Origin: Bdellovibrio sp.
GTDB taxonomy: Bacteria > Bdellovibrionota > Bdellovibrionia > Bdellovibrionales > Bdellovibrionaceae
NCBI GenBank assembly: GCA_036677065.1
Contig: JAKFBS010000001.1
Location: 616,137-640,136 of the forward strand
DNA length: 24,000 bases
Direction: 5' to 3'
Under the pieces are notes generated by a model. It saw nothing but the letters and a program-made list of their open reading frames with translations, made no database searches and was not told the origin of the DNA. Below are positions 3,135 to 24,000 of the stretch, one piece after another. The stretch's first letter is position 1, and every line of letters begins with the position of its first letter. The position numbers and the translations under genes were made by a program.

Positions 3135-3355
3135 AGGATTATTCCCCTTTCTTGGATCTATACATAGAACTATTTTTACTACATTTCCACTGTCATAATC
3201 CTGACAGGCATTAACTTCATGAAGTGACAAATATCGAAAATTAGATGTCATCTGATTAGACGATTGGGTTTCTATGCCCGTTAAAATTAAGCTTATTGTG
3301 GCCAGTAAAGTGCTTTAAAACCTTCGGAACCCTAAAAGGGCTGAAGGACGTATTT

Positions 3356-8803: not shown

Positions 8804-8822
8804 AGCTATCTAAGATAGCAAT

Positions 8823-9152
8823 TTAGCCTCGGTCAGTCACCATTTGCTGATAACCGCCATCAATTAGATAGACGTTTGTATAACCTTTTTTTTCTAAACT
8901 ATTAGCGATGCGCTCAGATTGCTTGCCATCAGGGCATAATAACAAAAGAGCAAAGTCTTTCGGGATCTTACGCTCATCTAATTCTTGCTGGAGCTGGCTT
9001 TCGGTGGTCATGATCTGCCAAGCTTCGACATGCATTTTTTGAATCGAAGAATACCAAGGGGCAATATCAGTTCCAAAATTAAAGAACATAAAGGGAACGC
9101 GGTTTTCGATCAGATTATTTAATTGGTAATAGCCGATTTTATTAAAACTCAT
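8823..9152 (-). CDS. Single-domain rhodanese-like protein
   Basis: 109 aa. Active-site-loop-like LLLCPDGKQSERIA and C-terminal VYLIDGGYQQM. The start ATG overlaps the upstream MFS stop (ATGA at 9149-9152). Confidence 0.7.
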   Translation of the reverse strand: MSFNKIGYYQLNNLIENRVPFMFFNFGTDIAPWYSSIQKMHVEAWQIMTTESQLQQELDERKIPKDFALLLLCPDGKQSERIANSLEKKGYTNVYLIDGGYQQMVTDRG

Positions 9153-10414: not shown

Positions 10415-10442
10415 ATATAAACTCGGTTACACTGGTGTGGCT

Positions 10443-11645
10443 ATGAAAAAAACATCAAATACACTGCGTTCTAAGGTTAATTTTGTCGTCCTAACGATGA
10501 CACTTTTTTCAACTGCTCAAAGCTGGGCGTTTTTTGATCCCTATCAGGTGTATCGCCCGCAAAGATTCGATTTGGCCGTAGATGCCCAATTTTATAAAAC
10601 CACAGCCAATTTCGATTCAGGTGGTGAAAAAATCGACTTACCTTTTGAAAATAGCTTTCAAATTATCGATGTGAATCCCCAATTACGCTGGGGAATGTTT
10701 CGTGACCTTGGGGTTCGTTTAGGCGCTAATATTGGCTCTTCTGAATCGGTTGATCCAATCAATACACGTAATAATTCTACAGTAAATCGTGTGGATGTCG
10801 GGGCGGATTACCAATTATTAAATTATGAATCTTTTCAAACGATCGTCGATTTTGAATATTCTCACCCTATGGAAAAAATCGATGTCGCCACTGATTCTTC
10901 GTTAAACAGTAACGGGGCTTCTGAAATTAAACCAACGCTGATCATGAGAATGGATTTAGGAAGTTTTTACCCGTACGCCTATTTGGGCGGAAACATTCGC
11001 AATGAAGGCTTATCAACACTATTAACTTATGGTGTTGGCGGAGAATTTCGTTTTTCAGAATTAGGGTTAGGCGCCGTTGTTGAAGGTTTTAGTTCGGTTA
11101 AGGATGATGAATTCACCAATTCGGCTTCACGCCGCGATCTGATCACGACACGCGTGAATGGTGGCAGTAAAAAGTTTTATTCAATCAATCCAAATGCATT
11201 AGCCGCAGAAGTTTTTTTAAATTTTGCCATGACAGAATGGATTAAGTTTAAAGCTTACGGCGGAGCTGATGTAACGGGATCAAATACCTCACAAGGATTT
11301 TTTGTCGGCGGTGCGCTGACATTGACTCTTGATTATGGCAATGGCAGCGATGATCTTGAAGAGCAACGCGTGATTCGTCGGTCACAGCGTCCGGCAAAGA
11401 AAGTAAAAAAACCAGTCGATAACGGTTTCAAAGAAAGCACTGATGATGGAGTAGACCAAAATTATTTTAAATCAGTAGATCCAAGTAATGATGATTACGT
11501 GCAACCGATTGAAGAAGAGCAGCAACAACCAGCACCCCAAAATGGAACCAGCTCTAGTGTTAACCCAAGTACACAAGGTGATTTGGATCAGCTCGGTTAT
11601 CAAATCAAATTAAAGAAACTTAAAAAGAAAAAGAAAAATCAGTAA
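10443..11645 (+). CDS. Putative outer-membrane beta-barrel protein with disordered Lys-rich C-terminal tail
   Basis: ATG 10443 gives the signal peptide MKKTSNTLRSKVNFVVLTMTLFSTAQSWA/FF. The track start at 10326 overlaps the divergent MFS gene. Alternating hydrophobic pattern with many Gly/aromatic strand ends. The final 99 aa (from 11346) are charged and low-complexity and end in KLKKLKKKKKNQ. Confidence 0.6.
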   Translation: MKKTSNTLRSKVNFVVLTMTLFSTAQSWAFFDPYQVYRPQRFDLAVDAQFYKTTANFDSGGEKIDLPFENSFQIIDVNPQLRWGMFRDLGVRLGANIGSSESVDPINTRNNSTVNRVDVGADYQLLNYESFQTIVDFEYSHPMEKIDVATDSSLNSNGASEIKPTLIMRMDLGSFYPYAYLGGNIRNEGLSTLLTYGVGGEFRFSELGLGAVVEGFSSVKDDEFTNSASRRDLITTRVNGGSKKFYSINPNALAAEVFLNFAMTEWIKFKAYGGADVTGSNTSQGFFVGGALTLTLDYGNGSDDLEEQRVIRRSQRPAKKVKKPVDNGFKESTDDGVDQNYFKSVDPSNDDYVQPIEEEQQQPAPQNGTSSSVNPSTQGDLDQLGYQIKLKKLKKKKKNQ

Positions 11646-11762
11646 GGCGCTTCGTGGCTATTTGCCACAGTAGCCTTTCTTATTACAATCATAACAAAAT
11701 AAATAATGACAAGTTTTGTAAGCCTTGATAGCTTGTCTCTATTCTATTGAAAGGAGAATCAC

Positions 11763-11846
11763 ATGATTACAAATATTAATACGCACGCCTTAGAGCAAAC
11801 ATTAGCCGTCGAAATGTCCGATTCTCCTATGGCACATCAATTCTAG
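11763..11846 (+). CDS. Candidate small ORF (27 aa, MITNINTHALEQTLAVEMSDSPMAHQF)
   Basis: A strong SD, gaaaggaga, ends 5 nt before the ATG. The ORF lies in an otherwise non-coding region of about 380 nt. Nested inverted repeats follow (gattctc...gagaatc, attcta...tagaat). No homology recognised. Confidence 0.25.
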   Translation: MITNINTHALEQTLAVEMSDSPMAHQF

Positions 11847-12029
11847 CAATCTAGTTAGAATCAAAAAGAGAATCCAAACAAAATTAAAGAATGAATCGCG
11901 ACTGGCCGTCCGCGATAATTAACATTATCGTCAAAGCTCGTTGTGGGTTTTTTCATTCTAAAATTTCAAAAAACAGATCAATTATTTTTATTTAACCGCA
12001 CTCGGAAACGAGCGCAAAAAGGATATTTT

Positions 12030-12281
12030 ATGAAAAACGCTAAAAATTATTTAGCATTATACGAAAATTGGGAAAATTCAAACGCGGAGGAGCTTTGGCG
12101 CCTTTGGAAAAGCGTTCTGAAGTGTATTAGCCTGATCGCTTACTCATTTCACGCCATCGTGAAACTAGCGATCGGGTTTTTATTAAATTCTAATTATTTA
12201 GTTAAGCACAACGAATTCGGAAAACTACCAGAAGAAATTTCTGGTAGTTTTTCTAACAATCAGAACTGGTATCGTAATTAA
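12030..12281 (+). CDS. Hypothetical small protein (83 aa)
   Basis: The internal ATG at 12030 is preceded by aaaaagga. The 112-aa track ORF starts at GTG 11943 with no RBS. One hydrophobic stretch (ISLIAYSFHAIVKLAIGFLL). No family recognised. Confidence 0.3.
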   Translation: MKNAKNYLALYENWENSNAEELWRLWKSVLKCISLIAYSFHAIVKLAIGFLLNSNYLVKHNEFGKLPEEISGSFSNNQNWYRN

Positions 12282-12291
12282 TGCCAGTTCT
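12262..12291. terminator. Stem-loop between convergent genes
   Basis: 8-bp perfect stem agaactgg / ccagttct with a 14-nt loop spanning the stop codon at 12279-12281, then ttatc. No clear U-tract. Confidence 0.3.
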
Positions 12292-12302
12292 TTATCTACA
12301 CT

Positions 12303-12905
12303 TTACAAGTCTTGAGTTTTTAGGCCATTGTTTGGATTTACACCCTTAGAATGAATATCAGTTACGCCATTGGTATGAATATCAAAAAGAGTTTTAATCA
12401 GATCTGAATATTCTTCAGTCGTTTCTGCATAACGAGTTGTTGGATTGCCTGGTGACCATGAATTAATAGTTCCAACAGGTTCTTTGTTTTGTTTTAAGTC
12501 AGCCATTGAGTTATATAAATGTAAAATTGGAGTGTCGCAATAATTTGGAGATTTTTCAAAACGTTGAAAAATCTTACAGTAGCCAAGTTTGGCGTAAAAA
12601 ATTCTTCCTGGTTTAAGAATGCCCGCTGTTTTAGGTGGAGCTTTCATTTGAAAGTAGCCAGCAAATTTAGAGCCCTTATATTGAACTTCCTCTTTTGCAT
12701 AAACGAGCGCAAGATTCTGAATAGGAGCTTCGTTATCAAATCCAGTAATAGCCGAATTGACTCTAAGTTGAAGAACGCGATCGTAATTCGCTACACTTCT
12801 TTCAACATTTGTTTTTACAGGTTGTGCTGCTGATTGAGTGACCATTGGTTGATGTGCGCATGAAAATGCAAACACAGCGAATAAAGCAGATAATAAAAGT
12901 TTCAT
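12303..12905 (-). CDS. Hypothetical lipoprotein
   Basis: ATG 12905 is preceded by a ggaga RBS. MKLLLSALFAVFAFSC has a lipobox-like FAFS/C. The track N-terminal extension to 12968 lacks support. Confidence 0.6.
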   Translation of the reverse strand: MKLLLSALFAVFAFSCAHQPMVTQSAAQPVKTNVERSVANYDRVLQLRVNSAITGFDNEAPIQNLALVYAKEEVQYKGSKFAGYFQMKAPPKTAGILKPGRIFYAKLGYCKIFQRFEKSPNYCDTPILHLYNSMADLKQNKEPVGTINSWSPGNPTTRYAETTEEYSDLIKTLFDIHTNGVTDIHSKGVNPNNGLKTQDL

Positions 12906-12997
12906 AAATTTTTCTCCGTTATACATCTTAGCGTTTAGCGCGAAAGACACATAGTCCAGATTAGGCAATGCCTAGAACAATGTCAGAGTTATAGATG

Positions 12998-13013
12998 AGC
13001 CCCCGAGGGGGCT
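12998..13013. terminator. GC-rich stem-loop downstream of divIVA
   Basis: agcccc-cgag-ggggct, with only a short ttt on the plus strand. Located between the divIVA stop (13097) and the lipoprotein start (12905). Confidence 0.3.
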
Positions 13014-13096
13014 TTCCTAAGATTGTGTTGTCGTACATGTTGTAAATCGTCTTGGGAGGGGCGATTTGGTTTTAGATTTTTTATTTTTTGTAAGAA

Positions 13097-13582
13097 CTAT
13101 TCAAGATCTATGTTTTGCATGCGCATTTTCGGCATGTAGGTTTCAGCTTGTTCTAATAATGACAAGTGGGCCTGAGCCATGGCTTTAAGATTGGCTTCGA
13201 ATTGCATTCTTGATTTTTTAAGATCAGAAATTTCAGTATAAATTTTACGTAAAGAGTCTTTTGCATCGCGCGTGATTGTTTCTGCCTTTTGTTGGGCGTC
13301 AGCAATAACTAATTTGCATTCGTGTTCTGCTTCTTGTTTCATTTGATCTGATAACTTAGTTGCTTGTGTGATAGCGCTGCGTAAGACATTATCGCGATCA
13401 CGAAATTCGTGAAGCTGTAATTCTTTTTCTTTAAGTTCTGCAGTTAGTGTTTGAATTTGTTGTGCAAGATTTTCAGTTTGCGCAGCAATAATCGTTAAAA
13501 AATTCACAACTTGTTCAGGATCAAAGCCCATCATCTTGCGATCAAAGGTCTTATTGATAATCTCAGTTGGGTAAAATTTCAT
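13097..13582 (-). CDS. divIVA: DivIVA-domain cell-division/polarity protein
   Basis: 161 aa. N-terminal DivIVA signature (INKTFDRKMMGFDPEQVVNFL) followed by an uninterrupted coiled coil. A ggagga RBS precedes the ATG. Confidence 0.85.
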   Translation of the reverse strand: MKFYPTEIINKTFDRKMMGFDPEQVVNFLTIIAAQTENLAQQIQTLTAELKEKELQLHEFRDRDNVLRSAITQATKLSDQMKQEAEHECKLVIADAQQKAETITRDAKDSLRKIYTEISDLKKSRMQFEANLKAMAQAHLSLLEQAETYMPKMRMQNIDLE

Positions 13583-13734
13583 TTAATTCCTCCATGAATC
13601 AAATTACGAACCCGTTGGTCTCTATTTAAGTATAGGCAATCCTTGCCCTAAAAAAAAGTCGAGTCCAAGGATGTGGTCATATCCTGTACCTTAGGAGGAG
13701 GACCTAAAGTCGTGCTGAATTGTGTCGTTTAAAC

Positions 13735-14580
13735 TTAGCTTAGACCTAAGTCTGTCTGGCGAGAGATTTCGCGTGAGCGAAGGGCTGCTTTTTCAAAGCT
13801 GATGCGTAAAGCGCGTTCGATCTCTAATTCGCGCATCGAATTTAAACCAGCGGCTGTAACCCCTTTTTTAGAAGTCACACGTTGTTGTAATTCTTCGATA
13901 TCAACACCTGAAGATTGAGCAGCTAATAAAGATGCGCCGACAAAAGTTTCAATCGTCATCACTTTAGCCTGTTCAGGGGTAAAGCCATGTTCAATGATCC
14001 AATCTTGCCAGTACATCATCATTTCAAAAACAAAGCCTGTACCGCTTGAACAAGAAATCATTAAAGCATCAAATTGGTCTTCAGTGTCTAATTCTAATAT
14101 TACGCCTAAGCCGGAAAACAGATCTTTCGTGATTTCAATAACCGCGACATCTTTTTTATGCGCCAGTAATCCTAAAACACCGCGACCAATTAATGATGGT
14201 GTGTTTGGCATAAGGCGAACTAGGCGGCCTTGCGGAATTAATTTTTCCAACGAGTGCATTGGGATGCCCGCAGCTAATGAGATGATGATTTGATTTTCAT
14301 CAAAAGCTGAAACTAAATTTGCCATCGCTGCAGGTAAGTCTTGCGGTTTCATTGCTAAAATTACGATGTCGCACTCTTCAACGATTTGTTCGTTATGTTC
14401 GCGAATTTCGATTTGATATAATTCTTTAAGCTTAAGGGGTTTACCCGGAGTGCGGTTCGAGACAAAAATTTGATCCGGTCTCATGAGTTTTGACTCAATG
14501 ATTCCTTTAATTAGGGCCTGAGCCATGTGTCCTGCGCCGATGAAACCAATTTTGTAAGACCGAAGTAAAGGATGAGTCAT
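13735..14580 (-). CDS. proC: Pyrroline-5-carboxylate reductase
   Basis: Start taken at ATG 14580 (MTHPLLRSYKIGFIGAGHMAQAL), which gives 281 aa. The longer track ORF would overlap the upstream gene by 86 nt. Rossmann GxGxxA motif, AMKPQD, and C-terminal VTSKKGVTAAGL typical of P5C reductases. Confidence 0.9.
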   Translation of the reverse strand: MTHPLLRSYKIGFIGAGHMAQALIKGIIESKLMRPDQIFVSNRTPGKPLKLKELYQIEIREHNEQIVEECDIVILAMKPQDLPAAMANLVSAFDENQIIISLAAGIPMHSLEKLIPQGRLVRLMPNTPSLIGRGVLGLLAHKKDVAVIEITKDLFSGLGVILELDTEDQFDALMISCSSGTGFVFEMMMYWQDWIIEHGFTPEQAKVMTIETFVGASLLAAQSSGVDIEELQQRVTSKKGVTAAGLNSMRELEIERALRISFEKAALRSREISRQTDLGLS

Positions 14581-14590
14581 ACTCGTTAGG

Positions 14591-15811
14591 CTACTGTATT
14601 TTTTGTCTTTCGCCAAATAAAACCGTGCCGATTCTGATCCATGTCGCACCTTCTTTGAGGGCGACTTGATAATCATGGCTTGTTCCCATTGAAAGTTCTT
14701 TAATTTGTAAGCGGTCAGCCAAGTTTTTTAATTTTTTAAAATGAATTTGATTGTCTGCAGCGTCGTTTTGCAACGGCGGCATGGTCATTAATCCTACGAT
14801 CTTAACATTTGAAAGCCGAGTCAGATTTTCCCATGCGGCAATAACGCTGGCTTCGTCAAAACCCGCCTTAGTAGCCTCGTTCGCAAGGTTGACCTGAATA
14901 AAAATCTTTTGCACATGGTTGATTTCTGAAGCCTTTTTTGAAACTAATTCGGCTAGTTCCAAAGAATCGATGGCATGTAAATAGGCAAAATTATTTTTTA
15001 AATATTTTACTTTGTTTTTTTGGATCGGGCCGATCAAATGCCACTCTAAATTTAAATCTTTTAAGGCTTCGATTTTTTCTAAAGCTTCTTGAATATAGTT
15101 TTCACCGAAAGCGCGCTGACCTTGGCTGGCTAAATCGCGAATTTTTTCGATCGGCTGAAGTTTGCTGACCGCCAGTAAATTCTGACCAGCAGAAAGCTGA
15201 GCTTTGATTTGCGCCAAAGGTGATTTTTCAAAAGTCCAATTTTTACCAGCAAATAATTTTTCTAAAGCTGTCAAAGGCAAGCCCACAACGTTGTTGTAGT
15301 CTCCCACAAACTTTTCCACAAATTTTCCGCCTAAACCTTGGATGGCGTAAGAGCCCGCTTTATCCATCGGTTCGCCGGTTTTGATGTAATCCCAGATGTC
15401 TTGATCAGCTAAATTTTTAAAATAAACCTGCGATGTCTCAATATGAGAAATAATATGACCATTACTTTGGTCCAGAAGAATGATTGCGGTTTTTACTTCA
15501 TGCATTTTGCCTGAAAGTTTTTTCAAAGTATTAAACGCATCCTGTTCGTTTTCAGGTTTTCCGATCGCTAAATTTCCTAAACAAACCATCGTGTCTGAAG
15601 CCAAAATAATACCGCCTGGATTTTTGTCAGGACATTGGTCCAGACAGGCCAGAGCTTTTCTTTTTGCGATGTCGATTATTTGCTCGTCTAAGCTTAGGTT
15701 TTCATTCGGGATTTCCGATATAAAGACTGGGAATGAGACAAAATAATATCCGGCTTTTTTTAGAATTTCAGCGCGGCGTGGAGATTGCGAAGCAAGGACA
15801 ATTTTTTTCAT
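14591..15811 (-). CDS. Fusion protein: N-terminal Maf nucleoside-triphosphate pyrophosphatase domain plus C-terminal YggS-family PLP-binding domain
   Basis: Single uninterrupted 406-aa ORF. Residues 1-188 are Maf-like (VLASQSPRRAEIL, ILASDTMV, DKAGSYAIQG). Residues about 197-403 are YggS/COG0325-like (LLAVSKLQP with the PLP Lys, FGENYIQE, WHLIGPIQKNK, ELSMGTSHDY, IRIGTVLFG). Confidence 0.85.
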   Translation of the reverse strand: MKKIVLASQSPRRAEILKKAGYYFVSFPVFISEIPNENLSLDEQIIDIAKRKALACLDQCPDKNPGGIILASDTMVCLGNLAIGKPENEQDAFNTLKKLSGKMHEVKTAIILLDQSNGHIISHIETSQVYFKNLADQDIWDYIKTGEPMDKAGSYAIQGLGGKFVEKFVGDYNNVVGLPLTALEKLFAGKNWTFEKSPLAQIKAQLSAGQNLLAVSKLQPIEKIRDLASQGQRAFGENYIQEALEKIEALKDLNLEWHLIGPIQKNKVKYLKNNFAYLHAIDSLELAELVSKKASEINHVQKIFIQVNLANEATKAGFDEASVIAAWENLTRLSNVKIVGLMTMPPLQNDAADNQIHFKKLKNLADRLQIKELSMGTSHDYQVALKEGATWIRIGTVLFGERQKIQ

Positions 15812-15841
15812 TCAAATTAAATTTAAACCAAAAGAGGATCT

Positions 15842-16747
15842 ATGGGTAGTGCTGAACTCATGTTATTTACCGGGCTCATCTTAGCGGGTGTGTCGGTTTA
15901 TCTTTTCATGACTTCCATTTTGGCGGGTAAACCCGGCGAAGCTCAATTGCAATGGGCGAGCGGCACTGAACCAGTTAAATCTAAAAATGGAATCATCAAT
16001 CTTTGTCGCCCGATGGTGCATCAGTTCACTCTGCAGCATGCGGCTAAATTTAAATCAGAACAATATCGTAAAAAAATTCGTCATCTGATTAAAACGGGCG
16101 GCATGTCGTCAGAGATGAACGAAGATGAATTTATCGGTTACCAATTGTTTTTAGGAATCGCGTTTCCAGTGTTTATTAACATCATGAATTTTTCTTTGGA
16201 TCTTGGTTTTTCGCCATTGATTCTTTGTATGCTTGGAGTGGTTGGCTGGTTTATGCCACAAATGCATTGTAAGGCGCAAAAAAGTGCCAGAGCCCTAAGT
16301 GTTCAGGCAGATATGCCATTTTTTATCGATCTACTTGCCTTATCAGTTGAAGCCGGTCTTGATTTTTTCGGAGCGATCCAAAAAATCGTGGATAAAGTTG
16401 CTGATCCAAATTCAGTTCTGGCTGATGAATTAAAAACCGTTTTGAAAGATATCAAAGTCGGTTCGTCAAAAACAGATGCATTAAAAGAAATGGCAGCCCG
16501 TTTAGACATGCCCGAGATCACAAGTTTCGTGGCGGTGTTAATCGATGCGGAAGCAACAGGTGCAAGTATCGCGCAAGTGTTAAAAGATCAATCGGTGCAA
16601 ATGCGTTTAGAACGGTTTGTGCGTGCAGAAAAAGCCGGGGCGCGAGCTTCGCAATTAATTTTATTACCATTAATGGGATTTATTTTACCAGCGGTATTTA
16701 TCATGGTGTTTGGCCCAGTGGTATTAGGATTTGTTTACGGAAAATAG
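15842..16747 (+). CDS. Type II secretion system F-domain protein, TadB/TadC (CpaG/CpaH)-like inner-membrane platform
   Basis: 301 aa. One N-terminal TM, a central TM pair and a C-terminal TM. A single GspF/T2SS-F-like cytoplasmic domain (ADMPFFIDLLALSVEAGLDFFGAIQKIV...VLKDIKVGSSKTDALKEMAARL). Size and single-domain layout match Tad platform proteins rather than PilC/GspF. Confidence 0.75.
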   Translation: MGSAELMLFTGLILAGVSVYLFMTSILAGKPGEAQLQWASGTEPVKSKNGIINLCRPMVHQFTLQHAAKFKSEQYRKKIRHLIKTGGMSSEMNEDEFIGYQLFLGIAFPVFINIMNFSLDLGFSPLILCMLGVVGWFMPQMHCKAQKSARALSVQADMPFFIDLLALSVEAGLDFFGAIQKIVDKVADPNSVLADELKTVLKDIKVGSSKTDALKEMAARLDMPEITSFVAVLIDAEATGASIAQVLKDQSVQMRLERFVRAEKAGARASQLILLPLMGFILPAVFIMVFGPVVLGFVYGK

Positions 16748-16759
16748 GAAATAGGGATT

Positions 16760-17116
16760 ATGGCGAAACTTTATAAAATACAACACGGTGATAAAGCCGA
16801 GCTTCTGATTGAAAATCTAGAGCTGGCCGAATCATTTTTTGCCCGTGGTAAAGGTTTGCTTGGCAGAAAATCTTTAGCGATTAATAACGCGCTTTGGATC
16901 AAACCCTGCAACAACATTCATACCTGCTTTATGAATTTTTCTATTGATTGTATTTTCGTAAATAAAAAAATGGAAATTGAAAAAATCGTTTCAGGTGTAA
17001 AGCCCTATAAGATTGTTGGTCCATATTGGAAATCGGCTTCAGTTTTTGAAACTGCAGCAGGATGCGCGCAAAAATGGAACCTTCAGGTAGGAGATCAGTT
17101 ATATGTGGTCAGTTAG
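16760..17116 (+). CDS. DUF192-family protein
   Basis: 118 aa. The pattern ARGKGLLGRKSL...LWIKPCNNIHTCFMNFSIDCIFVNKKMEI...VFETAAG...QVGDQL matches my recollection of the DUF192/COG1430 consensus. Begins 12 nt after the previous stop. Confidence 0.6.
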   Translation: MAKLYKIQHGDKAELLIENLELAESFFARGKGLLGRKSLAINNALWIKPCNNIHTCFMNFSIDCIFVNKKMEIEKIVSGVKPYKIVGPYWKSASVFETAAGCAQKWNLQVGDQLYVVS

Positions 17117-18770
17117 AGTATTGTCCGGTCCACAAACCGGACAGATCTTTGATTTAAAAATGGGTAAAAACCTGCTAGGTCGGGGAATGAACTGTGATTT
17201 TAAAATCACCTCGGGTGGTATTTCTAAAGACCACTGCGAAATTCACGTTTATAAAGATAAAGTGATCGTGGTTGATTTAAAATCAAGTAACGGAACCTTC
17301 GTAAATGGTGTAAAAATTCAAAATTCGATTATTAAACTGGGTGATAAAGTCAGCGTGTTCGATGTGATTATGGATGTGATTCCGTCTCCGGATATTCGTC
17401 CAAAACCAACAGCAGCACCTCGTCCGGTCGCATTGCGTCCGCGACCAGCACCGCAACCACAACGCCAAATGCCTCCACAAATGTACAACCAGCAACCTCC
17501 GGCATATCCAATGCAAGGCGGAGCTGCGATGCAAGCGCAAATGTATCAACAACCACTGAATGGAGTTCCGCCACAACAAAATAATTTTGGTGCGGCTATA
17601 GAAATGCCAAAAACTTTTGGCGAGCGCATTGATGAGTACATGGAAAATGTAGTGATGCCGGTATTTTATAAAATGTCGGTGGTGTTTCCATTTAAACAAG
17701 TTTTATTAGGAATGATGATTCTATTTGTCGTGTTCGTGACGATAGCTTCGATGTTTCCGTTAACGACAATTTTACGCGAATCTAATTTTAATGAAGCCGC
17801 AAAACGAGCAAAAAGTGTGGCGCGTGCGATGGCACGTATTAATGAACAGGCTTTATTATCCGGACAAATTAATAACCTAAATGTGAGCGAAGCATTAAAA
17901 GAAGATGGCATTAAAGAAGCTATCATTATTATGCAATCAGATGGTTCGGTGGTTGCTCCGACTGAAAAAGTCGGTCGTGATATGTCGAAATCTTTTGTGA
18001 TTCAAGCACGTAAAGAACCGCGTGCTCATGCTGCCCCTGTTGATGACAATACCATTGGTGCAAGTCATCCGATTGCAGCTTATGATCCATTATCAGGTGA
18101 AACTACTGTTAAATATGTAGCGATTGTCTTTTATGATATCAGCTCATTAAATGTGGACGATGGCCGTGTGATCAGTTTATTTATGCAAACGCTAGTGATC
18201 TCGGCGTTATTTGGCATTGGATTATATTTATTGTTCTCGCGTTTAATCGAATTTCCAATTCGTCAGTTGAACAAACAAATTGATACGGCCTTACGTGAAA
18301 AGTCAGATCGCACAGAAGTGGCTTTTGATTACCCTGAATTACAAAAAGCTGTGGCCAACGTAAACCTGCTTTTAAATCGTATGTGGAATGGTTTGAGTGA
18401 TTCTGAAACTATTAAACCAAGTCAAAATCGCGATGTCGAATTTTCACAAATGGTGAATATGTTAACTCAGCCTGCAGCAGTCATTTCTGCAAATGGGTCA
18501 ATTACTTCGTGTAATCATCAATTTGCAACTTTGGTGCAAACTGTACCTGAAGCTTTAATAGCGCAAAGTTATATGACAATTACCGATCAAGCGATGGTAC
18601 AGAATTTAGAAAGTTTAATGAGCCGAGCGCGCGAATTAGTTTATGAAACGCATCGAGATAAAATTCCGTTTTCTCAGTTTGAGTGTGAAATATTCTTGCA
18701 GGCGTTTTTAGACAGTGCCGGCGCACCAGAATACTTTTTTGTAAGTTTAACCAAGGTGAATGAGGAGTAA
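17103..18770 (+). CDS. FHA-domain membrane protein: FHA, P/Q-rich linker, TM, periplasmic PDC/Cache-like region, TM, HAMP-like, PAS-like
   Basis: FHA hallmarks LGRG...ISKDHCEI...VVDLKSSNGTFVNG...LGDKV (aa about 24-88). Low-complexity P/Q aa 95-165. TM aa about 198-222 and 356-379. HAMP-like IEFPIRQLNKQI...DYPELQKAVANVNLLLNRM. PAS-like FSQMVNMLTQPAAVISANGSITSCNHQFATLV. Overlaps the previous gene by 14 nt. Confidence 0.8.
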   Translation: MWSVRVLSGPQTGQIFDLKMGKNLLGRGMNCDFKITSGGISKDHCEIHVYKDKVIVVDLKSSNGTFVNGVKIQNSIIKLGDKVSVFDVIMDVIPSPDIRPKPTAAPRPVALRPRPAPQPQRQMPPQMYNQQPPAYPMQGGAAMQAQMYQQPLNGVPPQQNNFGAAIEMPKTFGERIDEYMENVVMPVFYKMSVVFPFKQVLLGMMILFVVFVTIASMFPLTTILRESNFNEAAKRAKSVARAMARINEQALLSGQINNLNVSEALKEDGIKEAIIIMQSDGSVVAPTEKVGRDMSKSFVIQARKEPRAHAAPVDDNTIGASHPIAAYDPLSGETTVKYVAIVFYDISSLNVDDGRVISLFMQTLVISALFGIGLYLLFSRLIEFPIRQLNKQIDTALREKSDRTEVAFDYPELQKAVANVNLLLNRMWNGLSDSETIKPSQNRDVEFSQMVNMLTQPAAVISANGSITSCNHQFATLVQTVPEALIAQSYMTITDQAMVQNLESLMSRARELVYETHRDKIPFSQFECEIFLQAFLDSAGAPEYFFVSLTKVNEE

Positions 18771-18778
18771 AGCACTAG

Positions 18779-20002
18779 ATGTCGACGGCTGAAAAGCTTA
18801 ACCCCGCAGTTCAAATTAAATTGAAAGTGCTGAAAGGACCGCATGAAGGGCAGTCTTTTCACCTTGCAAAGAGCTCGTTTACTTTAGGACGTGGTCCTGA
18901 GAACGAGGTCGTTTTAATTAATGATCCGCAGATCAGTCGTCAGCATGCGCGTTTACAAGTGGTTGGCCAAGATATCGAAATTATCAATTTAAGTAAAAAA
19001 AATAAAGTGATGGTGGGATCAGAAGAAATCCAAAAATGGAAACTGATCAACGATTCTACTTTTGTTATCGGTGATACAGAACTTCAAATTGCTTTTGAAA
19101 TTGAAAAAATCACCCCCGTAGCGCCGCTACCGCAATTAGTGCCTATGAGCAATTTGCCAGCGTTGCCAACACCGCCAGTAGACGGTGGAGCGCCAGCTCC
19201 GATTCCTGCGCCGCAAGCAAAAGCACCAAAAATAAAACAACAACCGGCTCAGCGAAAGCCAATGTCTGCGCCCGCAATGCGCCAACAAGCGCCGGCGCAA
19301 AGACAACAGCAAATGCAAGCACGTGGTGCGATGGCTCCGGGACGACCGATGCAACCACAAATGCAAAGACCAATGCAGCCGCAACAACAAAATGCGCAGG
19401 CAAATTTAGGTTATGCAAAACCACAGCAAGCAAGTGCGGGATTTTTTGCAAATCCAAAAGTTCGATTTTATTTAATCGTAGGCATAGCGGTCTTTAGTCT
19501 AGTTTATTGGCTGAATATGGAAGAGCCCAAAAAAGCTCAATCTACAGAGATTAAGTCGACTTTAAAATATGAAGATGAATATCTTCTTAAACAAAATTCG
19601 GTCACTGAAAAAGAGCTAGACCTGAAACGTAAAAACCAATTGGAGCAAAAGAACTCGCCGACCAATTTACGTATCCAAGAGAACTTTCAAAAAGGAATGC
19701 GTGATTTTCAGTTAGGCAATTACACTCGCTCCCTAGACTTTTTTCAGGTTGTTCTGAACTTAGATTCAAGCCATGTCATGGCCCGTAGGCATTTATATTT
19801 AGCAAAAATCCGCTTCGATGAAATCGTAAAAGCGAAATTAGCACTTGGAGAAAGTTATTATCAGAAGCATAATTTTAAAATGTGCCTGGCTAATTACCAG
19901 CAAGTTTTGACTATGCTTCAGGGTAAAAACAACGACCAAAGTTACCAAACAGCCCAAAGCATGTCAGAAAAGTGTCAACTGGCAGCTGAGGGAATTCGTT
20001 AA
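18779..20002 (+). CDS. FHA-domain membrane protein: FHA, P/Q-rich linker, TM, TPR-like periplasmic domain
   Basis: LGRGPENEVVLINDPQISRQHARL...IINLSKKNKVMVG...IGDTEL (FHA with a non-canonical S-x-N-G region). P/Q-rich aa about 112-220. TM FYLIVGIAVFSLVYWLNM. TPR-like pairs (FQKGMRDFQLGNYTRSLDFFQVVLNLD; LGESYYQKHNFKMCLANYQQVL). Begins 8 nt after the previous stop, with a gaggag RBS. Confidence 0.8.
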   Translation: MSTAEKLNPAVQIKLKVLKGPHEGQSFHLAKSSFTLGRGPENEVVLINDPQISRQHARLQVVGQDIEIINLSKKNKVMVGSEEIQKWKLINDSTFVIGDTELQIAFEIEKITPVAPLPQLVPMSNLPALPTPPVDGGAPAPIPAPQAKAPKIKQQPAQRKPMSAPAMRQQAPAQRQQQMQARGAMAPGRPMQPQMQRPMQPQQQNAQANLGYAKPQQASAGFFANPKVRFYLIVGIAVFSLVYWLNMEEPKKAQSTEIKSTLKYEDEYLLKQNSVTEKELDLKRKNQLEQKNSPTNLRIQENFQKGMRDFQLGNYTRSLDFFQVVLNLDSSHVMARRHLYLAKIRFDEIVKAKLALGESYYQKHNFKMCLANYQQVLTMLQGKNNDQSYQTAQSMSEKCQLAAEGIR

Positions 20003-20004
20003 AT

Positions 20005-22086
20005 ATGTCGAGACTGAAAGTTATATTAAGGGGAGCACAGATCAGTGACTTAAACCTTAGCCCCGATCGTGAATACGTCGGTGGCCGTAAGGAAAGTTGT
20101 GATATCCGTTTGCAACCTGAAAAAGGAATCTCGCGCGAACATTTCAAATTAAAATTTGAAGAAGGCCGTTGGGTATTAACTTCGCTCTCGCGATTTGGCG
20201 AAATCTTTTCTTTAGGGCAAAGAGTTGAATCAACTCCGCTTGAGCATGGCCAGGTTTTTCAGATTCCCCCGTATGAATTCACTTTAAGCGATATACCGGA
20301 TTCACAGAGTGATAGCGTCAATGCGAACGAAATGCCAGAGGCTGGCGAAAACGAACGTACGGTTATTGGCGTAGCCCAGCAGGTTCCGTATATCAAAATG
20401 ATGTCTTCAGATGGCGCTGTTCGAGAAATGCTTCGTTTAGAAGTAGGCGATGTCTGGGCTGCTGGCCGCGATCCATCATGCCAAATTATTATTCCTGATC
20501 AACGCGTAAGTCGTCGTCAATTTGAAGTTAGAAAAATTAATGGTATTTACACGATCATCGATTTAACCAGTGTGAACGGAACCTTCTTAAATGGTTCACC
20601 CATTTCAAGCACTGATCCCCAGCCATTAAAATCCGGTGATGCGATCACAGTTCTTGATAACACAATGTACTTCGAACTTCATGATCCAAACTTTCAATAC
20701 CGTATGGAACGCATTGAAGTTCCACCATTGCAAATGGCCGGTGCTGCAGGCCTGGACGATCTTGAAGAAATTGGTCTTGATGAAATTCCACTAGAAGAAG
20801 AACAATACGATCCGAATCAGGATATGAATTACCCGCAAGAAATTGATCAAGGTTATTACCAAGATCAGTTAAATCCGGATGGCAGCCCCTTTACGGGAAT
20901 GCCGCAGGAACAAATGCAGGGTGATTACTACAACATGCAACAGGGTGAACAAGCTTCTGAGCAACAAGGCCCACCGCCAACACCAATTGTTCAGGCCTGG
21001 AACAGATTTAAAAATAACAAACCCGTTTTCTTTTCAGTGATCGCTTTATTTTTGGTCGGCATGTATTTTTTAAGTGATATGATGAATGCGCCAGCGCCGC
21101 AAAAGAGCGGTCAGCAACAGGCTTTTAATCCGGATGATCCATTGTCACGCTTAAAACCAGAAGAGCGTGAAAATGTTAATCTGTGGTATAACAATGCTGA
21201 AAAAGCCCTTCGTCAGCAGGCGTTCACTATTGCTAAAGAAAACTTAGATAATATTCATAAGCTAATGCCATTGGGATATAAAGATTCAAAACTTTATGAA
21301 GCTGAAGCTTTAAATGGTGAACAAACTTTATTAACTCAGCAAGAAACAGAACGTCGCGAAAAAGAACAGGCTGAATTACAGGCCCTGATCAAGGCCACAT
21401 TAGAAAAATGTGAAAAGGCCATTGTGCCTGAAACCACTCCGGAAGGTTTGCAAGATTGCTTAGCGCCGGTGACAATCAATGATCCGACAAATGCAGACGC
21501 CGAAAGAATGTTAATGCAGGTTAGAAAAACAATTTCTGACCGCTTAGCTAAAGAAGAAGCAGAACGTGTGGCAAAAAATCAGCGCGAAGAATTGAAAGAA
21601 ATTTTTGAACGCGCAGAAAAAGTTCATGAAACTGGTTTTCCGAAAAAAGCCATTAAAGCTTACCGCGAAGTTATTGATAGTGATCTTCCGGATCCAGATG
21701 GATTAAAAGACACGGCGGCACTGCGAATTAAATTTATACAAAAAAAGTTAGAAGAACGTAATGCTAATAATATTTCAAGTGCTGAGCTTTATTTAAAAGA
21801 CGGTAAATTTAAAGAAGGCATCATGGCTTTGCGAGCGGCTTTGCAATTTGATCCCGATAATCAAACGATCAAAGATAAAATCGAACGTTACTCAAATGAT
21901 TTACGCAATCAGGTGAAGGTGATGTACCAAGAGTCAATCATCGATGAAAATTTTGGTTATGTAGATGGCTCTGATACCCGCCCGGGTGCAAAAGATAAAT
22001 GGAAAAAAATTATCGATATAGATTTAGAAGACGGCGATTATTACCGTAAGGCCTTCATTAAGTTAAAACGCTATGGAGTATTATAA
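20005..22086 (+). CDS. Tandem-FHA membrane protein: divergent FHA1, canonical FHA2, acidic/Q-rich linker, TM, long coiled-coil/TPR-like periplasmic domain
   Basis: FHA1 is VGGRKESCDIRL...ISREHFKL...LTSLSRFGEIFSLG, in which the NG position is lost. FHA2 is AAGRDPSCQIII...VSRRQFEV...IIDLTSVNGTFLNG...SGDAI. TM VFFSVIALFLVGMYFLSDMM (aa about 340-359). Begins 2 nt after the previous stop. Confidence 0.8.
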   Translation: MSRLKVILRGAQISDLNLSPDREYVGGRKESCDIRLQPEKGISREHFKLKFEEGRWVLTSLSRFGEIFSLGQRVESTPLEHGQVFQIPPYEFTLSDIPDSQSDSVNANEMPEAGENERTVIGVAQQVPYIKMMSSDGAVREMLRLEVGDVWAAGRDPSCQIIIPDQRVSRRQFEVRKINGIYTIIDLTSVNGTFLNGSPISSTDPQPLKSGDAITVLDNTMYFELHDPNFQYRMERIEVPPLQMAGAAGLDDLEEIGLDEIPLEEEQYDPNQDMNYPQEIDQGYYQDQLNPDGSPFTGMPQEQMQGDYYNMQQGEQASEQQGPPPTPIVQAWNRFKNNKPVFFSVIALFLVGMYFLSDMMNAPAPQKSGQQQAFNPDDPLSRLKPEERENVNLWYNNAEKALRQQAFTIAKENLDNIHKLMPLGYKDSKLYEAEALNGEQTLLTQQETERREKEQAELQALIKATLEKCEKAIVPETTPEGLQDCLAPVTINDPTNADAERMLMQVRKTISDRLAKEEAERVAKNQREELKEIFERAEKVHETGFPKKAIKAYREVIDSDLPDPDGLKDTAALRIKFIQKKLEERNANNISSAELYLKDGKFKEGIMALRAALQFDPDNQTIKDKIERYSNDLRNQVKVMYQESIIDENFGYVDGSDTRPGAKDKWKKIIDIDLEDGDYYRKAFIKLKRYGVL

Positions 22087-22088
22087 TC

Positions 22089-22667
22089 GTGAAATCAAAA
22101 ATTAATTCGCATAACGGCGATCAAAAGTTTCCCCAAACCAAATTACACAGTTTGTTAAATGATAATTTACTGATTTGCATTCGTTTGTGGAGTGGCCCAG
22201 AGGCCGAACAAAAAGCCGTTGATGAAATTTCAAGATATCTTTCTGCGGCTGATGCAGACTTAGAAGTGACAACGCCCTTTGATTATATTGAAAGCTTATC
22301 TTCATTATCAAATAAAGTGCGTGTAGCTTTGTTGTTGGCCAACGAAGCCATTTATTTAGATAATAAAGAAAGATATACCCAAGGCTATGAAATCGCGATT
22401 TGTTACAAGCATAACAAAGAAATCAGTATCGGATCGGTGGGCCGTTTTGCATTTACTGCAGAAAAAAAAGATAAAAACTTTACCATATTTGAATCAGGTG
22501 CATTTTTAGATGATTTAGTGTTATTACCCACAGATTTATTGGGCATCGAACGCGAAGTAGATATTAAATGCACTTCGGTTTCTACGCGTGATTTAGAGGC
22601 TATCCAAATTAGCTCAACGTTTGACGAAAACACTTATTGGCAAGCGCATCTTAATCAATTCGATTAG
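22089..22667 (+). CDS. Hypothetical protein, possibly a degenerate PP2C/SpoIIE-like fold lacking metal-binding Asp residues
   Basis: GTG start 2 nt after the previous stop. LICIRLWSGPEAEQKAVDEISRYL, LLLANEAIY and YEIAICYKHNKEISIGSVGRFAFTAEKK line up in order with the PP2C motifs (xVxDGxGGxxxGxxAS, lxxAnxxl, GtTlvxxxxxxxxlxxxxvGDSRxy). The Asp positions are substituted. Eye-level pattern match only. Confidence 0.55.
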   Translation: MKSKINSHNGDQKFPQTKLHSLLNDNLLICIRLWSGPEAEQKAVDEISRYLSAADADLEVTTPFDYIESLSSLSNKVRVALLLANEAIYLDNKERYTQGYEIAICYKHNKEISIGSVGRFAFTAEKKDKNFTIFESGAFLDDLVLLPTDLLGIEREVDIKCTSVSTRDLEAIQISSTFDENTYWQAHLNQFD

Positions 22668-22680
22668 CGTTAACTTAATA

Positions 22681-24000
22681 TTACAAAACAAAAATTGGAT
22701 CGACAAAAATCAATGGATGATACCAAACTTTATTAGGCTGGTATAAACCCCACATGTTTTCTAAAGCCAGATTCCAAATCGCGATTTTAATTTCTTCAAA
22801 ATATTTTTTACGACTTAACTCATAAGTTAGTTTTGCTTTTTCAGGGCTTAAATCAAATAGACTTGCGTGTTTAAACTTTAAATAGTCGACGAATAAACTA
22901 TCATGACAAGATTTTAGCTGTGAAAGGCTTGTTGGTGGTTTGCTGATCAGATTTAAACACCCCGAATAGGCCATATCTAGTTTTGTCAGATCTAATTTGT
23001 CGATCTGTTTATTTTTAAGCTGCTGATTTAACCAGTACAGATAAAGTGGATGGTTTTCAGAAATTTTTAACGAGAAAAATTCAGCAGCAGGTAAAGTGTT
23101 TTTTAAATAATCCCGGGCGATCGTAGAGCCATTGTCTTCAATGGGAGTAATGCTCGTCATAAATAAACGACGGATGCTTGGAATATCCTGCTCGGTATTT
23201 TTTTTGTTGTTAAGGTTAACGACTTCAAAACGGTCGGTCGCTAAATTAAAAATTTCGGTTTCTTCTTTGCGATCTATAACCAGCAATGTCGGACTAATAA
23301 TCGCAAAGTTTAATTGTAAGGGTGATTTGATCCATGTATTAGAGGCTTCAACCAACAGCTGGCGAGTGCCGGCGATGCTGTCAGAGGCCTCACTGTAAAA
23401 TTGACTGAGGTTTAACACTGGAAATCCATCAAGCGTTGAAGGTTCGTCAGACTCGAAGAAATGCTTAAGTGTATAACCTATGTCGGCCAGACTTATGGGG
23501 ATGTCATTCTTCCACGAAATACCTTCATCGCCTTGCATGCGTGGAGGTTTGATTAAAAGTGACACAAGCGTATTTTCAGAATGTAAATTTAAAAAAGCAG
23601 TTTCATTTAGGCGGTTATAATTATTGCTGCCGCGCAAACCTACAACGTAAACGTAAGTTTTATCCCAAATGCCGCGATCTTTTAGTTCAGTGATAAAGTT
23701 AAAGAGTTTTTCGTCTAATCTTTCAAGGTTAGTTGATGTCGTATCAAGTTCATTTAAAGCCTCGATTTCAGAATTGGTAATAACCGCAAAAAATGGGGTT
23801 GAGTCTTCTTTTTGCCAATCTAAAAAGCTTTCTGAAGTGGTTTTGAAATCTTTAATAATTTGGTTTGAATATTGAGCGGCTGCTGAATCGTCGAAGGTAT
23901 CAAAGTATTTCGATAAGCCAGTCTTTTTAAGTACATGCGGGTTGCCAGCGAAAAACCCAGTGCGATAACTTTTGTGATACGCAGCCTCTTGTGCGGTTTT
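22681..24000 (-). CDS. Sulfatase/alkaline-phosphatase-superfamily (LtaS/MdoB-like) protein with C-terminal extension, 5' end outside window
   Basis: The minus-strand frame stays open from 24000 through the track start (TTG 23637), reading KTAQEAAYHKSYRTGFFAGN...VYVVGLRGSNN. The order of YRTGFF, TPFFAVI, LERLDEKLFNFITELKDRGIWDKTYVYVVGLRG, LVSLLIKPP and SLADIGYTLKHFF follows sulfatase-family blocks (GYxT, kPFF, yxDxxlgxxxxxLkxxGxxdnTxxxxxgDHG, vPlii, DiaPTll). Confidence 0.6.
   Translation of the reverse strand, partial: KTAQEAAYHKSYRTGFFAGNPHVLKKTGLSKYFDTFDDSAAAQYSNQIIKDFKTTSESFLDWQKEDSTPFFAVITNSEIEALNELDTTSTNLERLDEKLFNFITELKDRGIWDKTYVYVVGLRGSNNYNRLNETAFLNLHSENTLVSLLIKPPRMQGDEGISWKNDIPISLADIGYTLKHFFESDEPSTLDGFPVLNLSQFYSEASDSIAGTRQLLVEASNTWIKSPLQLNFAIISPTLLVIDRKEETEIFNLATDRFEVVNLNNKKNTEQDIPSIRRLFMTSITPIEDNGSTIARDYLKNTLPAAEFFSLKISENHPLYLYWLNQQLKNKQIDKLDLTKLDMAYSGCLNLISKPPTSLSQLKSCHDSLFVDYLKFKHASLFDLSPEKAKLTYELSRKKYFEEIKIAIWNLALENMWGLYQPNKVWYHPLIFVDPIFVL

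Follow-up and report, generated by a model that had tools for sequence, protein, structure and literature searches.

The stretch of DNA considered here belongs to Bdellovibrio sp. (assembly GCA_036677065.1, contig JAKFBS010000001.1, positions 616,137 to 640,136 of the forward strand) and is referred to at its full length of 24,000 nucleotides (nt) as the window. At positions 15842 to 22667 it carries a block of six plus-strand genes, named p1 to p6 below, in which a platform protein of the tight adherence (Tad) machine is followed by a DUF192 protein, three membrane proteins with FHA domains and a protein with the fold of PP2C phosphatases. The locus is already known: the window holds a further orthologue of a partly characterised system, the operon Bd0470-Bd0475 of Bdellovibrio bacteriovorus. 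The six open reading frames (ORFs) were verified at the following positions, lengths being given in amino acids (aa).

15842-16747, plus strand: p1, a TadC-type inner-membrane platform protein of the Tad machine, 301 aa, orthologue of Bd0470/KilH (Pfam, homologue names, literature)
16760-17116, plus strand: p2, a DUF192 protein, 118 aa (Pfam DUF192, 62.3 bits against a cut-off of 27, E value 4.7e-17)
17103-18770, plus strand: p3, an FHA-fused, kinase-less WalK-like sensor, 555 aa, by its position the likely orthologue of Bd0472 (Pfam, NCBIfam, AlphaFold2, PDB match)
18779-20002, plus strand: p4, 407 aa, likely orthologue of Bd0473, with an FHA domain (residues 16-104), a Pro/Gln-rich linker, a transmembrane segment (about 228-248) and a periplasmic TPR-like C-terminus (Pfam, hydropathy)
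20005-22086, plus strand: p5, a double-FHA protein with a periplasmic coiled-coil/TPR domain (residues 360-693), orthologue of Bd0474 (Pfam, hydropathy, published Bd0474 layout)
22089-22667, plus strand: p6, a cytoplasmic PP2C-fold pseudo-phosphatase, 192 aa, GTG start, likely orthologue of Bd0475 (AlphaFold2, Foldseek, hhalign)

Consecutive frames are spaced by 12, -14, 8, 2 and 2 nt, and a Shine-Dalgarno-like motif lies 5′ of all six start codons. A first-pass annotation of this DNA had described six packed plus-strand frames with these gaps, and its coordinates are confirmed. The tight spacing from p1 to p6 is compatible with translational coupling, as far as can be read from the sequence.

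The block is kept as a unit among related bacteria. An alignment scan with TadC over one genome per GTDB species gave 80 best loci, all of them from Bdellovibrionales, and the counts that follow refer to the 56 species-representative loci of this set with at least 6.2 kb downstream of TadC. The genes p1 to p5 stand in the same order and orientation in every one of the 56, and p6 comes directly after them in 54. Conservation includes the flanks: upstream, on the opposite strand, lie Maf, YggS, ProC and DivIVA, and downstream there are a sulfatase-like gene and ExbB/ExbD. The block persists in Bacteriovoracaceae, and the colinearity that the first-pass annotation had proposed to look for in related genomes extends to that family and beyond. 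The window itself is 100% identical to the Logan metagenome contig L084 over positions 7103-24000. Its TadC shares 98% identity with the TadC of the metagenome-assembled genome (MAG) Bdellovibrio sp. LC033 and 92% with that of the epibiotic predator B. qaytius (bioRxiv 10.1101/506055), whose protein CIK05_02470 is 86% identical to p6. Close relatives of the locus are classified as Pseudobdellovibrio, and by sequence comparison the block is the Pseudobdellovibrio orthologue of Bd0470-Bd0475.

Several genes of this operon have been studied in B. bacteriovorus. It has been reported that a BD0470::tn (TadC) mutant shows no prey attachment, killing or rounding, and that a BD0474::tn mutant attaches to prey and neither kills nor rounds it; both mutants were complemented, and Bd0474 was described as an uncharacterised protein with an FHA domain, encoded in the same operon downstream of tadC (Duncan 2019, PMC6561027). 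In a further study Bd0470-Bd0475 were stated to be one operon, Bd0474 was laid out as two FHA domains (2-100 and 134-241) and an extracytoplasmic TPR region (363-673), and it was found by two-hybrid analysis to bind the TPR protein Bd0075 (PMC12034629). The same work predicted an interaction between the FHA protein Bd0473 and Bd0475, the latter called hypothetical, with an interface predicted template modelling score (ipTM) of 0.604 (PMC12034629). The complemented predation phenotypes of the Bd0470 and Bd0474 mutants and the Bd0474-Bd0075 contact show that the roles of these genes, called uncharacterised in the first-pass annotation, are known in part.

The published domain boundaries of Bd0474 match the layout of p5. 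Twelve residues of Bd0474 have been published as lying at its interface, and all 12 are present in the p5 orthologues of Bdellovibrio sp. L022 and L032, whereas 11 of the 12 recur with the same numbering in L026. Because of this recurrence the p5 family is identified, on sequence grounds, as the Bd0474 family. The loci of strain HD100 and of Myxococcus xanthus lay outside the scan of the best 80, and the link to HD100 is drawn through the published residue numbers, the domain boundaries and the literature.

The place of the locus within the Tad system has also been described. The "tadC locus" of B. bacteriovorus lies apart from tad locus 1, has neighbours with FHA, TPR, PAS and histidine kinase domains, and could not be freed of tadC by deletion; TadC-mCherry is found at the invasive pole with RcpA and RomR, and a TadZA fusion and the remaining Tad genes lie elsewhere in the genome (Tesseur 2026, bioRxiv 10.64898/2026.07.08.737194). 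The idea of a machine split across loci, put forward in the first-pass annotation, matches this separation of the tadC locus from tad locus 1. Its statement that the Kil apparatus of M. xanthus carries FHA genes and has relatives in Bdellovibrio-like predators was also right: Bd0470 is the orthologue of KilH (MXAN_4650), and the genes MXAN_4649 (FHA) and MXAN_4648 (FHA and TPR) adjoin kilH (Seef et al. 2021, PMC8460266). A signalling role for many FHA proteins was proposed in that study and left untested there. Neither the RomR proximity-network paper nor the comparative-genomics paper on Bdellovibrionota mentions these genes.

The first protein, p1, carries a single C-terminal T2SSF domain (PF00482) at residues 161-290, with 62.1 bits against a cut-off of 25.2 and an E value of 6.7e-17, and hydrophobic segments at about residues 6-24, 97-137 and 272-290. 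Its homologues bear the JGI name "tight adherence protein C". In L090 and L092, two distant loci with complete sets of Tad genes, the second T2SSF gene, which occupies the TadC position, matches p1 with 32-36% identity over the full length, and the first, TadB, with 26-29% over part of the length. Since it is closer to the second platform gene, p1 is assigned as TadC rather than TadB. It is thus the TadC subunit of a machine whose TadB, TadZ-TadA ATPase, RcpA secretin, RcpC and pilins are encoded elsewhere in Bdellovibrionales. Long TadC homologues of 400-530 aa were suspected of being FHA-TadC fusions; Pfam found in them only T2SSF, with N-terminal extensions lacking a known domain. Homologues of the Bacteriovoracaceae type (P0201, P0204, P0205, P0208, P0216, P0218, P0219) have an N-terminal extension of 170-235 aa without a Pfam domain, and such extended forms of TadC also occur at L085 8001-9518 and L088 38-1483.

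The second protein, p2, has neither a signal peptide nor a transmembrane segment. Its gene overlaps that of p3 by 14 nt, and -14 nt is also the median spacing across the 56 loci. A DUF192 gene is present in 56 of 56 Bdellovibrionales loci, which makes it a constant member of the block, and it is found again in the distant loci L085 to L092, standing after the FHA genes in L090. No solved structure was matched by the sequence of p2, and a literature search on DUF192 gave no functional lead.

The three following proteins share a plan. In p3, p4 and p5 alike, hydropathy places an FHA region N-terminal of a Pro/Gln-rich linker, which is followed by a transmembrane segment. All three exceed the Pfam cut-off of 20.7 bits for FHA (PF00498), with 54.6 bits for p3, 41.7 for p4 and 104.6 for p5. 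They are inner-membrane proteins with cytoplasmic FHA domains and with periplasmic parts that are PAS/Cache-like in p3 and of the TPR/coiled-coil kind in p4 and p5. The most elaborate of them is p3, whose parts are the following.

17103-17384, plus strand: FHA domain of p3, residues 1-94, cytoplasmic (Pfam FHA, 1.5e-14)
17700-18248, plus strand: first transmembrane segment TM1 of p3 (about 200-218), periplasmic alpha/beta sensor domain (about 219-355) and second transmembrane segment TM2 (about 356-382) (hydropathy; AlphaFold2, predicted local distance difference test (pLDDT) 75-86)
18249-18755, plus strand: cytoplasmic HAMP-like two-helix unit of p3 (about 383-440) and PAS domain (about 443-551) (AlphaFold2, structural matches)

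The AlphaFold2 model of p3 is good at the level of the domains, although the linker lowers its overall pLDDT to 67. It places the FHA domain at residues 1-94 and a disordered stretch at 97-169, then a long transmembrane helix, the periplasmic domain, a second transmembrane segment running into the HAMP-like helices (353-398 and 411-429) and a PAS fold at 443-551 with a pLDDT of about 88. The Pfam match to PAS has an E value of 0.0017 and is below threshold, and HAMP was not detected in p3 by Pfam. The HAMP unit is therefore a model-based assignment, which draws on the AlphaFold2 helices, the structural match to WalK and the NCBIfam WalK alignment. That alignment spans residues 197-518, and the top match in the PDB is 9a5d_A, a model of full-length WalK (E value 1.4e-13, 420 columns), followed by PAS domains and by the FHA protein GarA. 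HisKA and HATPase are absent, by Pfam, from p3 and from all 120 homologues listed, and p3 ends after its PAS domain. Because the layout is that of WalK and the kinase domains are missing, p3 is regarded as a kinase-less WalK-like sensor.

In p4, Pfam matches Yop-YscD_cpl with an E value of 2.2e-15 and FHA with 1.6e-10, and TPR is below threshold. In p5, two stretches match FHA (3.6e-30): FHA-A at about residues 10-96 and FHA-B at about 131-231, with the Pfam core of the latter at 153-215; an acidic, Gln-rich linker and a transmembrane segment at 341-359 follow. Most of the domain order read by the first-pass annotation is thereby upheld. The T2SS-F platform and the DUF192 protein as first two genes and the FHA folds at the three N-termini all have Pfam matches above the gathering score, and hydropathy agrees with the topology claimed for the trio, with a cytoplasmic FHA domain, a linker, one or two transmembrane segments and a periplasmic domain. 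PAS and TPR remain sub-threshold, and HAMP, which Pfam did not find, has the support of models. Opposite-strand ORFs at 17283-17699, 17666-17926 and 19136-19457, within the genes of p3 and p4, were taken as by-products of the Pro/Gln-rich coding sequence.

The sixth protein has left few traces in its sequence of what its fold reveals. By sequence alone p6 has no match in Pfam, in NCBIfam or in a profile search of PDB sequences, and an hhalign comparison with one PstP sequence found nothing. The AlphaFold2 model, built with an alignment of 46 homologues, has a pLDDT of 89.6 and a predicted template modelling score (pTM) of 0.87. When it was compared with the PDB by Foldseek, the top 50 matches were all of the PPM/PP2C fold, led by tPphA (E value 4.6e-9, TM-score 0.69) and including PppA of the type VI secretion system (T6SS; 6jkv, E value 4.3e-8), PstP and Stp1, as well as the pseudo-phosphatase-like domains of TAB1 and RssB.

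The ancestry of p6 is illuminated by loci whose TadC is 30-40% identical to that of the window (L085, L086, L087, L088 and L089). In them the sixth gene encodes a protein of 226-246 aa, and Pfam detects PP2C_2 in those of L085 and L086 (27.0 and 31.9 bits against 24) and SpoIIE in that of L087 (25.4 against 25). The p6 profile does not detect the distant PP2C-like sixth proteins directly; hhalign of the p6 family against the PP2C_2-positive sixth-position proteins gives a probability of 92.5% and an E value of 4.7e-7 over 167 columns. All four metal-binding motifs (NED, DGFGG, SDG and DNQT) are intact in the sixth proteins of L085 and L087, two unclassified metagenomic loci whose flanking genes recur at the Bacteriovoracaceae MAG locus L088. 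In the p6 family NED has become PQT, DGxGG is replaced by an invariant R32-L-W34-S-G, SDG has become SST, and DN is lost with the deletion of the C-terminal segment. Because the metal-binding acidic residues are replaced or deleted, p6 is classed as a pseudo-phosphatase and not as an enzyme. By these comparisons it is a homologue of an operon-encoded PP2C that has lost the metal-binding aspartates and is still strongly conserved, and the first-pass call of a PP2C-like pseudo-phosphatase is borne out by the predicted fold, the profile-profile homology and the lost motifs. A description of Bd0475 as PP2C-derived was not found in the papers searched, and a search combining "Bdellovibrio" with "pseudophosphatase" returned nothing.

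A loop of p6, D57-x-x-x-T61-x-P63-[FL] (D-A-D-L-E-V-T-T-P-F, residues 57-64, window 22257-22280), is nearly invariant in the family, and its D...T.P core is also present in the intact-looking PP2C homologues. It may be a docking or phospho-acceptor site. After the PP2C-like gene of the Bacteriovoracaceae-type loci comes a gene for a response-regulator receiver protein with an uncharacterised C-terminal part (L085 15357-16598, L087 15009-15725, L088 7480-8925, L089 16380-17675). About 2 kb upstream of tadC, L087 has a gene for a PilZ-domain protein beside mreB.

Distant loci place the same genes within the Tad system itself. On the unclassified metagenomic contig L086 (52% GC), positions 15008-16933, the six-gene block is followed by two Flp-type pilins (GQSMTEY and GQGITEY, of the pattern G-x-x-x-x-E-Y) and a Peptidase_A24 prepilin peptidase, and then by two TadE-like genes (GQALVEY and GQSTVEF). 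The Candidatus Schekmanbacteria MAG locus L090 (1365-15049) begins with TadG-like, RcpC, secretin, a TadZ-TadA fusion of 757 aa, TadB and TadC, and continues uninterrupted with FHA-PAS, FHA-TPR, FHA-TPR, DUF192 and TPR genes. The unclassified contig L092 has pilins/TadE, RcpC, secretin, a TadZ-TadA fusion, TadB and TadC, and after TadC a DUF192 fragment, two FHA genes, a second T2SSE ATPase and a Pkinase; this second ATPase and the kinase, a Hanks-type protein of 581 aa, stand directly after the FHA genes at 12970-16545. By BLAST, the relationships of p3, p4 and p5 reach beyond the FHA domains in L086, L088, L091 and L092. The FHA/DUF192 set thus seems, from gene content, to travel with a Tad subtype having a TadZA fusion, as described for B. 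bacteriovorus. Because L090 and L092 hold the same genes within complete Tad loci, the isolated tadC locus of Bdellovibrionales appears to be a secondary split.

These linkages bear on the question of whether the five genes downstream of tadC belong to the Tad machine at all. They could instead be an envelope-signalling module in its own right, which senses contact or stress and has outputs such as gliding motility or the secretion of prey-modifying enzymes; it would share only location and expression with tadC and would leave the Tad machine itself untouched. The Bd0474 mutant falls into a phenotype class different from that of the TadC mutant (PMC6561027), and its partner Bd0075 is not a Tad protein (PMC12034629), as would be expected of such a module; yet the linkage to TadC has been kept over very long evolutionary distances despite changing neighbours. 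The complete sensor input of p3, with its periplasmic domain, HAMP and PAS, and the response-regulator gene after the block in Bacteriovoracaceae-type loci would likewise suit it, as would the suggestion of a 2025 review that the FHA proteins of kil clusters couple contact to motility arrest. Against these stand the FHA genes inside the complete Tad loci of L090 and L092, those between tadC and the pilin and prepilin-peptidase genes of L086, and the tight spacing, which is compatible with translational coupling. On this balance an independent module is considered very improbable, and the identity of the locus and its membership of a Tad machine are held with high confidence.

How the FHA proteins would serve the machine depends on what their FHA domains recognise. 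FHA domains are readers of phosphothreonine, in which Gly-Arg, Ser-x-x-His and Asn-Gly contact the phosphopeptide. In the FHA domain of p3 the residues G26, R27, S41, H44, N63 and G64 are invariant among homologues, and the Gly-Arg and Ser-Arg pairs are conserved at 95% or more in p4 and in both FHA domains of p5 (66-67 orthologues). In the FHA-B domain of the window p5 the His of SxxH is replaced by Gln. This pattern of conservation favours a true reading of phosphothreonine by these domains.

Taken together, the evidence makes it probable that the block encodes an accessory and regulatory complex that spans the membrane, reads phosphothreonine and serves the predatory Tad machine, which is Kil-like and of type IVc. 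The inference of an accessory or regulatory complex, already drawn in the first-pass annotation, is supported by the identity of TadC, the FHA profiles, the synteny and the Tad context of L086, L090 and L092. In the proposed mechanism the three FHA proteins would assemble into an accessory complex that spans the membrane and surrounds the TadB/TadC platform at the pole touching the prey, and their periplasmic domains would sense or hold partners in prey contact, such as the TPR protein Bd0075 that binds Bd0474. The FHA domains would dock on threonine-phosphorylated partners made by a Hanks kinase encoded elsewhere, and this docking could couple prey contact to the post-attachment steps that fail in the Bd0474 mutant, namely pilus action, prey remodelling and killing. 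The sixth protein would no longer erase the mark and would more likely bind the FHA proteins without catalysis, as a partner or latch, while the DUF192 protein would be an obligatory small cytoplasmic partner, translationally coupled to p3. For the phospho-dependent coupling taken by itself, the chances appear even.

A number of observations weigh against this interpretation. No gene for TadA, TadB, RcpA or Flp pilins was found by Pfam in the 24-kb window, and no Pkinase was found among its scanned ORFs of at least 80 aa or in the 10-kb flanks of relatives; a Hanks kinase stands beside the FHA genes only in the distant locus L092. We know of no phosphorylated partner. In the NG motif, conservation of the Asn is limited to p3 and FHA-B of p5 and does not extend to p4 or to FHA-A of p5. 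The window p5 agrees with the published Bd0075-Bd0474 interface at only 3 of 12 residues, and the predicted Bd0473-Bd0475 contact (ipTM 0.604) is borderline. The two loci without p6, the most divergent of the Bdellovibrionales loci, have unrelated genes in its position. Scans for sigma-70 promoters and terminators gave results at chance level. Moreover, p3, p4 and p5 all exceed the gathering score of 33.2 bits for Yop-YscD_cpl (PF16697), with 47.5, 57.1 and 66.5 bits, and since this model is of the phospho-independent YscD type, a purely structural role of the FHA domains is possible.

The last point leads to a different account of the trio, in which the FHA proteins would be a phospho-independent structural ring or alignment scaffold around the Tad platform, similar to SctD of type III secretion systems (T3SS), with kinase and phosphatase uninvolved. 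Besides the PF16697 matches, the topology of FHA domain, one transmembrane segment and periplasmic domain is common to both, and MXAN_4649 gave a PrgH-like HHpred match (PMC8460266). However, the periplasmic parts are PAS-like or TPR and not ring-building, and each of the four FHA domains keeps, at 95% conservation or more, the Arg and Ser that contact the phosphate. In this lineage the phosphatase is dead and no kinase is nearby, as a scaffold would allow, but an intact-looking PP2C is sixth in L085 and L087 and a Hanks kinase follows the FHA genes in L092. Finally, the Bd0474 mutant still attaches to prey, which argues against a basic role in assembly if attachment is indeed Tad-dependent. 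A scaffold of this kind is therefore judged unlikely, and the phosphothreonine-reading accessory complex is the preferred interpretation.

A further extension of the preferred interpretation is tentative and on balance doubtful. It would hold that the FHA trio, the DUF192 protein and the PP2C-family protein are integral and ancient parts of a distinct Tad subtype, marked by a TadZ-TadA fusion ATPase and found in Bdellovibrionota, in Myxococcota (Kil) and in at least one Candidatus Schekmanbacteria MAG. The phosphatase of Bdellovibrionales would have been converted from an eraser of phosphothreonine to a non-catalytic holder of FHA or phospho-protein partners, and the dead enzyme would serve as a latch, giving a clutch, triggered by contact, that licenses the post-attachment steps.

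The question behind this locus is how predatory bacteria convert contact with prey into killing or invasion. FHA proteins of Tad/Kil clusters are published candidates for the link from contact to killing (PMC8460266; bioRxiv 10.64898/2026.07.08.737194; the 2025 review mentioned above). The block is present in the epibiotic B. qaytius as well as in periplasmic predators, and therefore it would serve contact rather than invasion as such. The ancestral sixth gene seems to resemble an active PP2C and a Hanks kinase is attached in one lineage, which supports real phosphothreonine signalling; the Bdellovibrionales phosphatase, dead and yet strongly conserved, is a concrete and testable pseudo-enzyme. 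The window adds no new system. In the literature searched there was no account of p6 as the decayed descendant of a PP2C, of p3 as a WalK-like sensor without a kinase, of DUF192 as a constant part of the block, or of unsplit loci with a kinase outside Bdellovibrionota. These are useful as annotations and hypotheses, and none of them is expected to greatly surprise a specialist.

The surroundings of the block show several features of their own. Upstream, on the minus strand, a single ORF of 406 aa at 14591-15811 joins Maf (residues 3-187) to a YggS-type Ala_racemase_N domain (200-402). The fusion is also called in the identical contig L084; in the more distant L002 and L003 Maf and YggS are separate, overlapping genes of 203 and 219 aa, and in B. 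qaytius only the YggS part is called. A ProC ORF at 13735-14676 (minus strand), 313 aa from its first start, has 86 nt in common with the maf-yggS ORF. On L084 ProC is called with 281 aa, and its true start therefore probably lies further downstream. Between the divergent starts of maf-yggS (minus strand) and tadC (plus strand) there are only 30 nt (15812-15841), and the promoter of tadC must therefore sit within the maf coding sequence. Searches for that promoter found no sigma-70-like site on the plus strand and no sigma-28-type pattern.

Downstream, a minus-strand ORF at 22681-24000, listed with 318 aa from a TTG, is the 3′ part of a sulfatase-like gene of 558 aa that leaves the window. It converges on p6 with 13 nt between the stop codons, and there is therefore no space for an intergenic terminator. 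Near the start of the window, 785-1444 and 1541-2200 (plus strand) are tandem paralogues of 219 aa each, 76% identical, with signal-peptide-like N-termini and no Pfam match. The ORFs 2254-3030, 3296-4909 and 4970-6073 are also without a Pfam match and appear to be secreted or membrane-bound.

Among known systems, WalK is comparable to a single protein of the block. It shares with p3 the succession of a transmembrane segment, an extracytoplasmic PAS-like domain, a second transmembrane segment, HAMP and a cytoplasmic PAS domain, whereas p3 has neither DHp (HisKA) nor HATPase_c and carries an FHA domain and a disordered linker before TM1. The FHA trio as a whole resembles SctD (YscD/PrgH) of T3SS in its N-terminal FHA-like domain, single transmembrane segment, periplasmic domain and PF16697 match. 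The FHA-like domains of SctD lack the residues that bind phosphothreonine; in the proteins of the window the phosphate-binding residues are kept, and the periplasmic parts are TPR- or PAS-like instead of ring-building motifs.

A further parallel is the threonine-phosphorylation pathway of the Pseudomonas aeruginosa T6SS, which consists of the kinase PpkA, the PP2C phosphatase PppA, Fha1 and TagQRST. Both systems associate FHA proteins and a PP2C-family protein with a trans-envelope machine and have periplasmic or TPR sensor components. The operon of the window differs in having no kinase and a catalytically dead PP2C homologue, its FHA domains are not soluble but joined to membrane anchors and periplasmic domains, and its machine is a type IV filament.

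Two more of the known systems are those of other predators. Kil cluster 2 of M. xanthus (MXAN_4648 to MXAN_4651, the last being KilG) and the locus of the window both belong to Tad-like machines of predators, with FHA genes adjoining the orthologous platform gene. KilH adjoins KilG and KilB, whereas the TadC of the window is isolated from other platform genes, and the ATPase KilF of M. xanthus itself has an FHA domain. The published Kil table has two FHA genes against three here, and no DUF192 or PP2C-like gene is listed in it (PMC8460266). From Bdellovibrio sensu stricto the window is set apart by a TadC that is about 68-70% identical, by a far more diverged p6 (phmmer about 70-80 bits, against 380-416 for close relatives) and, in p5, by Bd0075-contact residues of Bd0474 that are mostly not conserved. 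With Bd0470-Bd0475 it nevertheless shares the same six-gene order, with TadC first, the double-FHA, transmembrane and TPR protein fifth and a small "hypothetical" protein sixth, and the HD100 locus has been described as one operon that is needed for predation.

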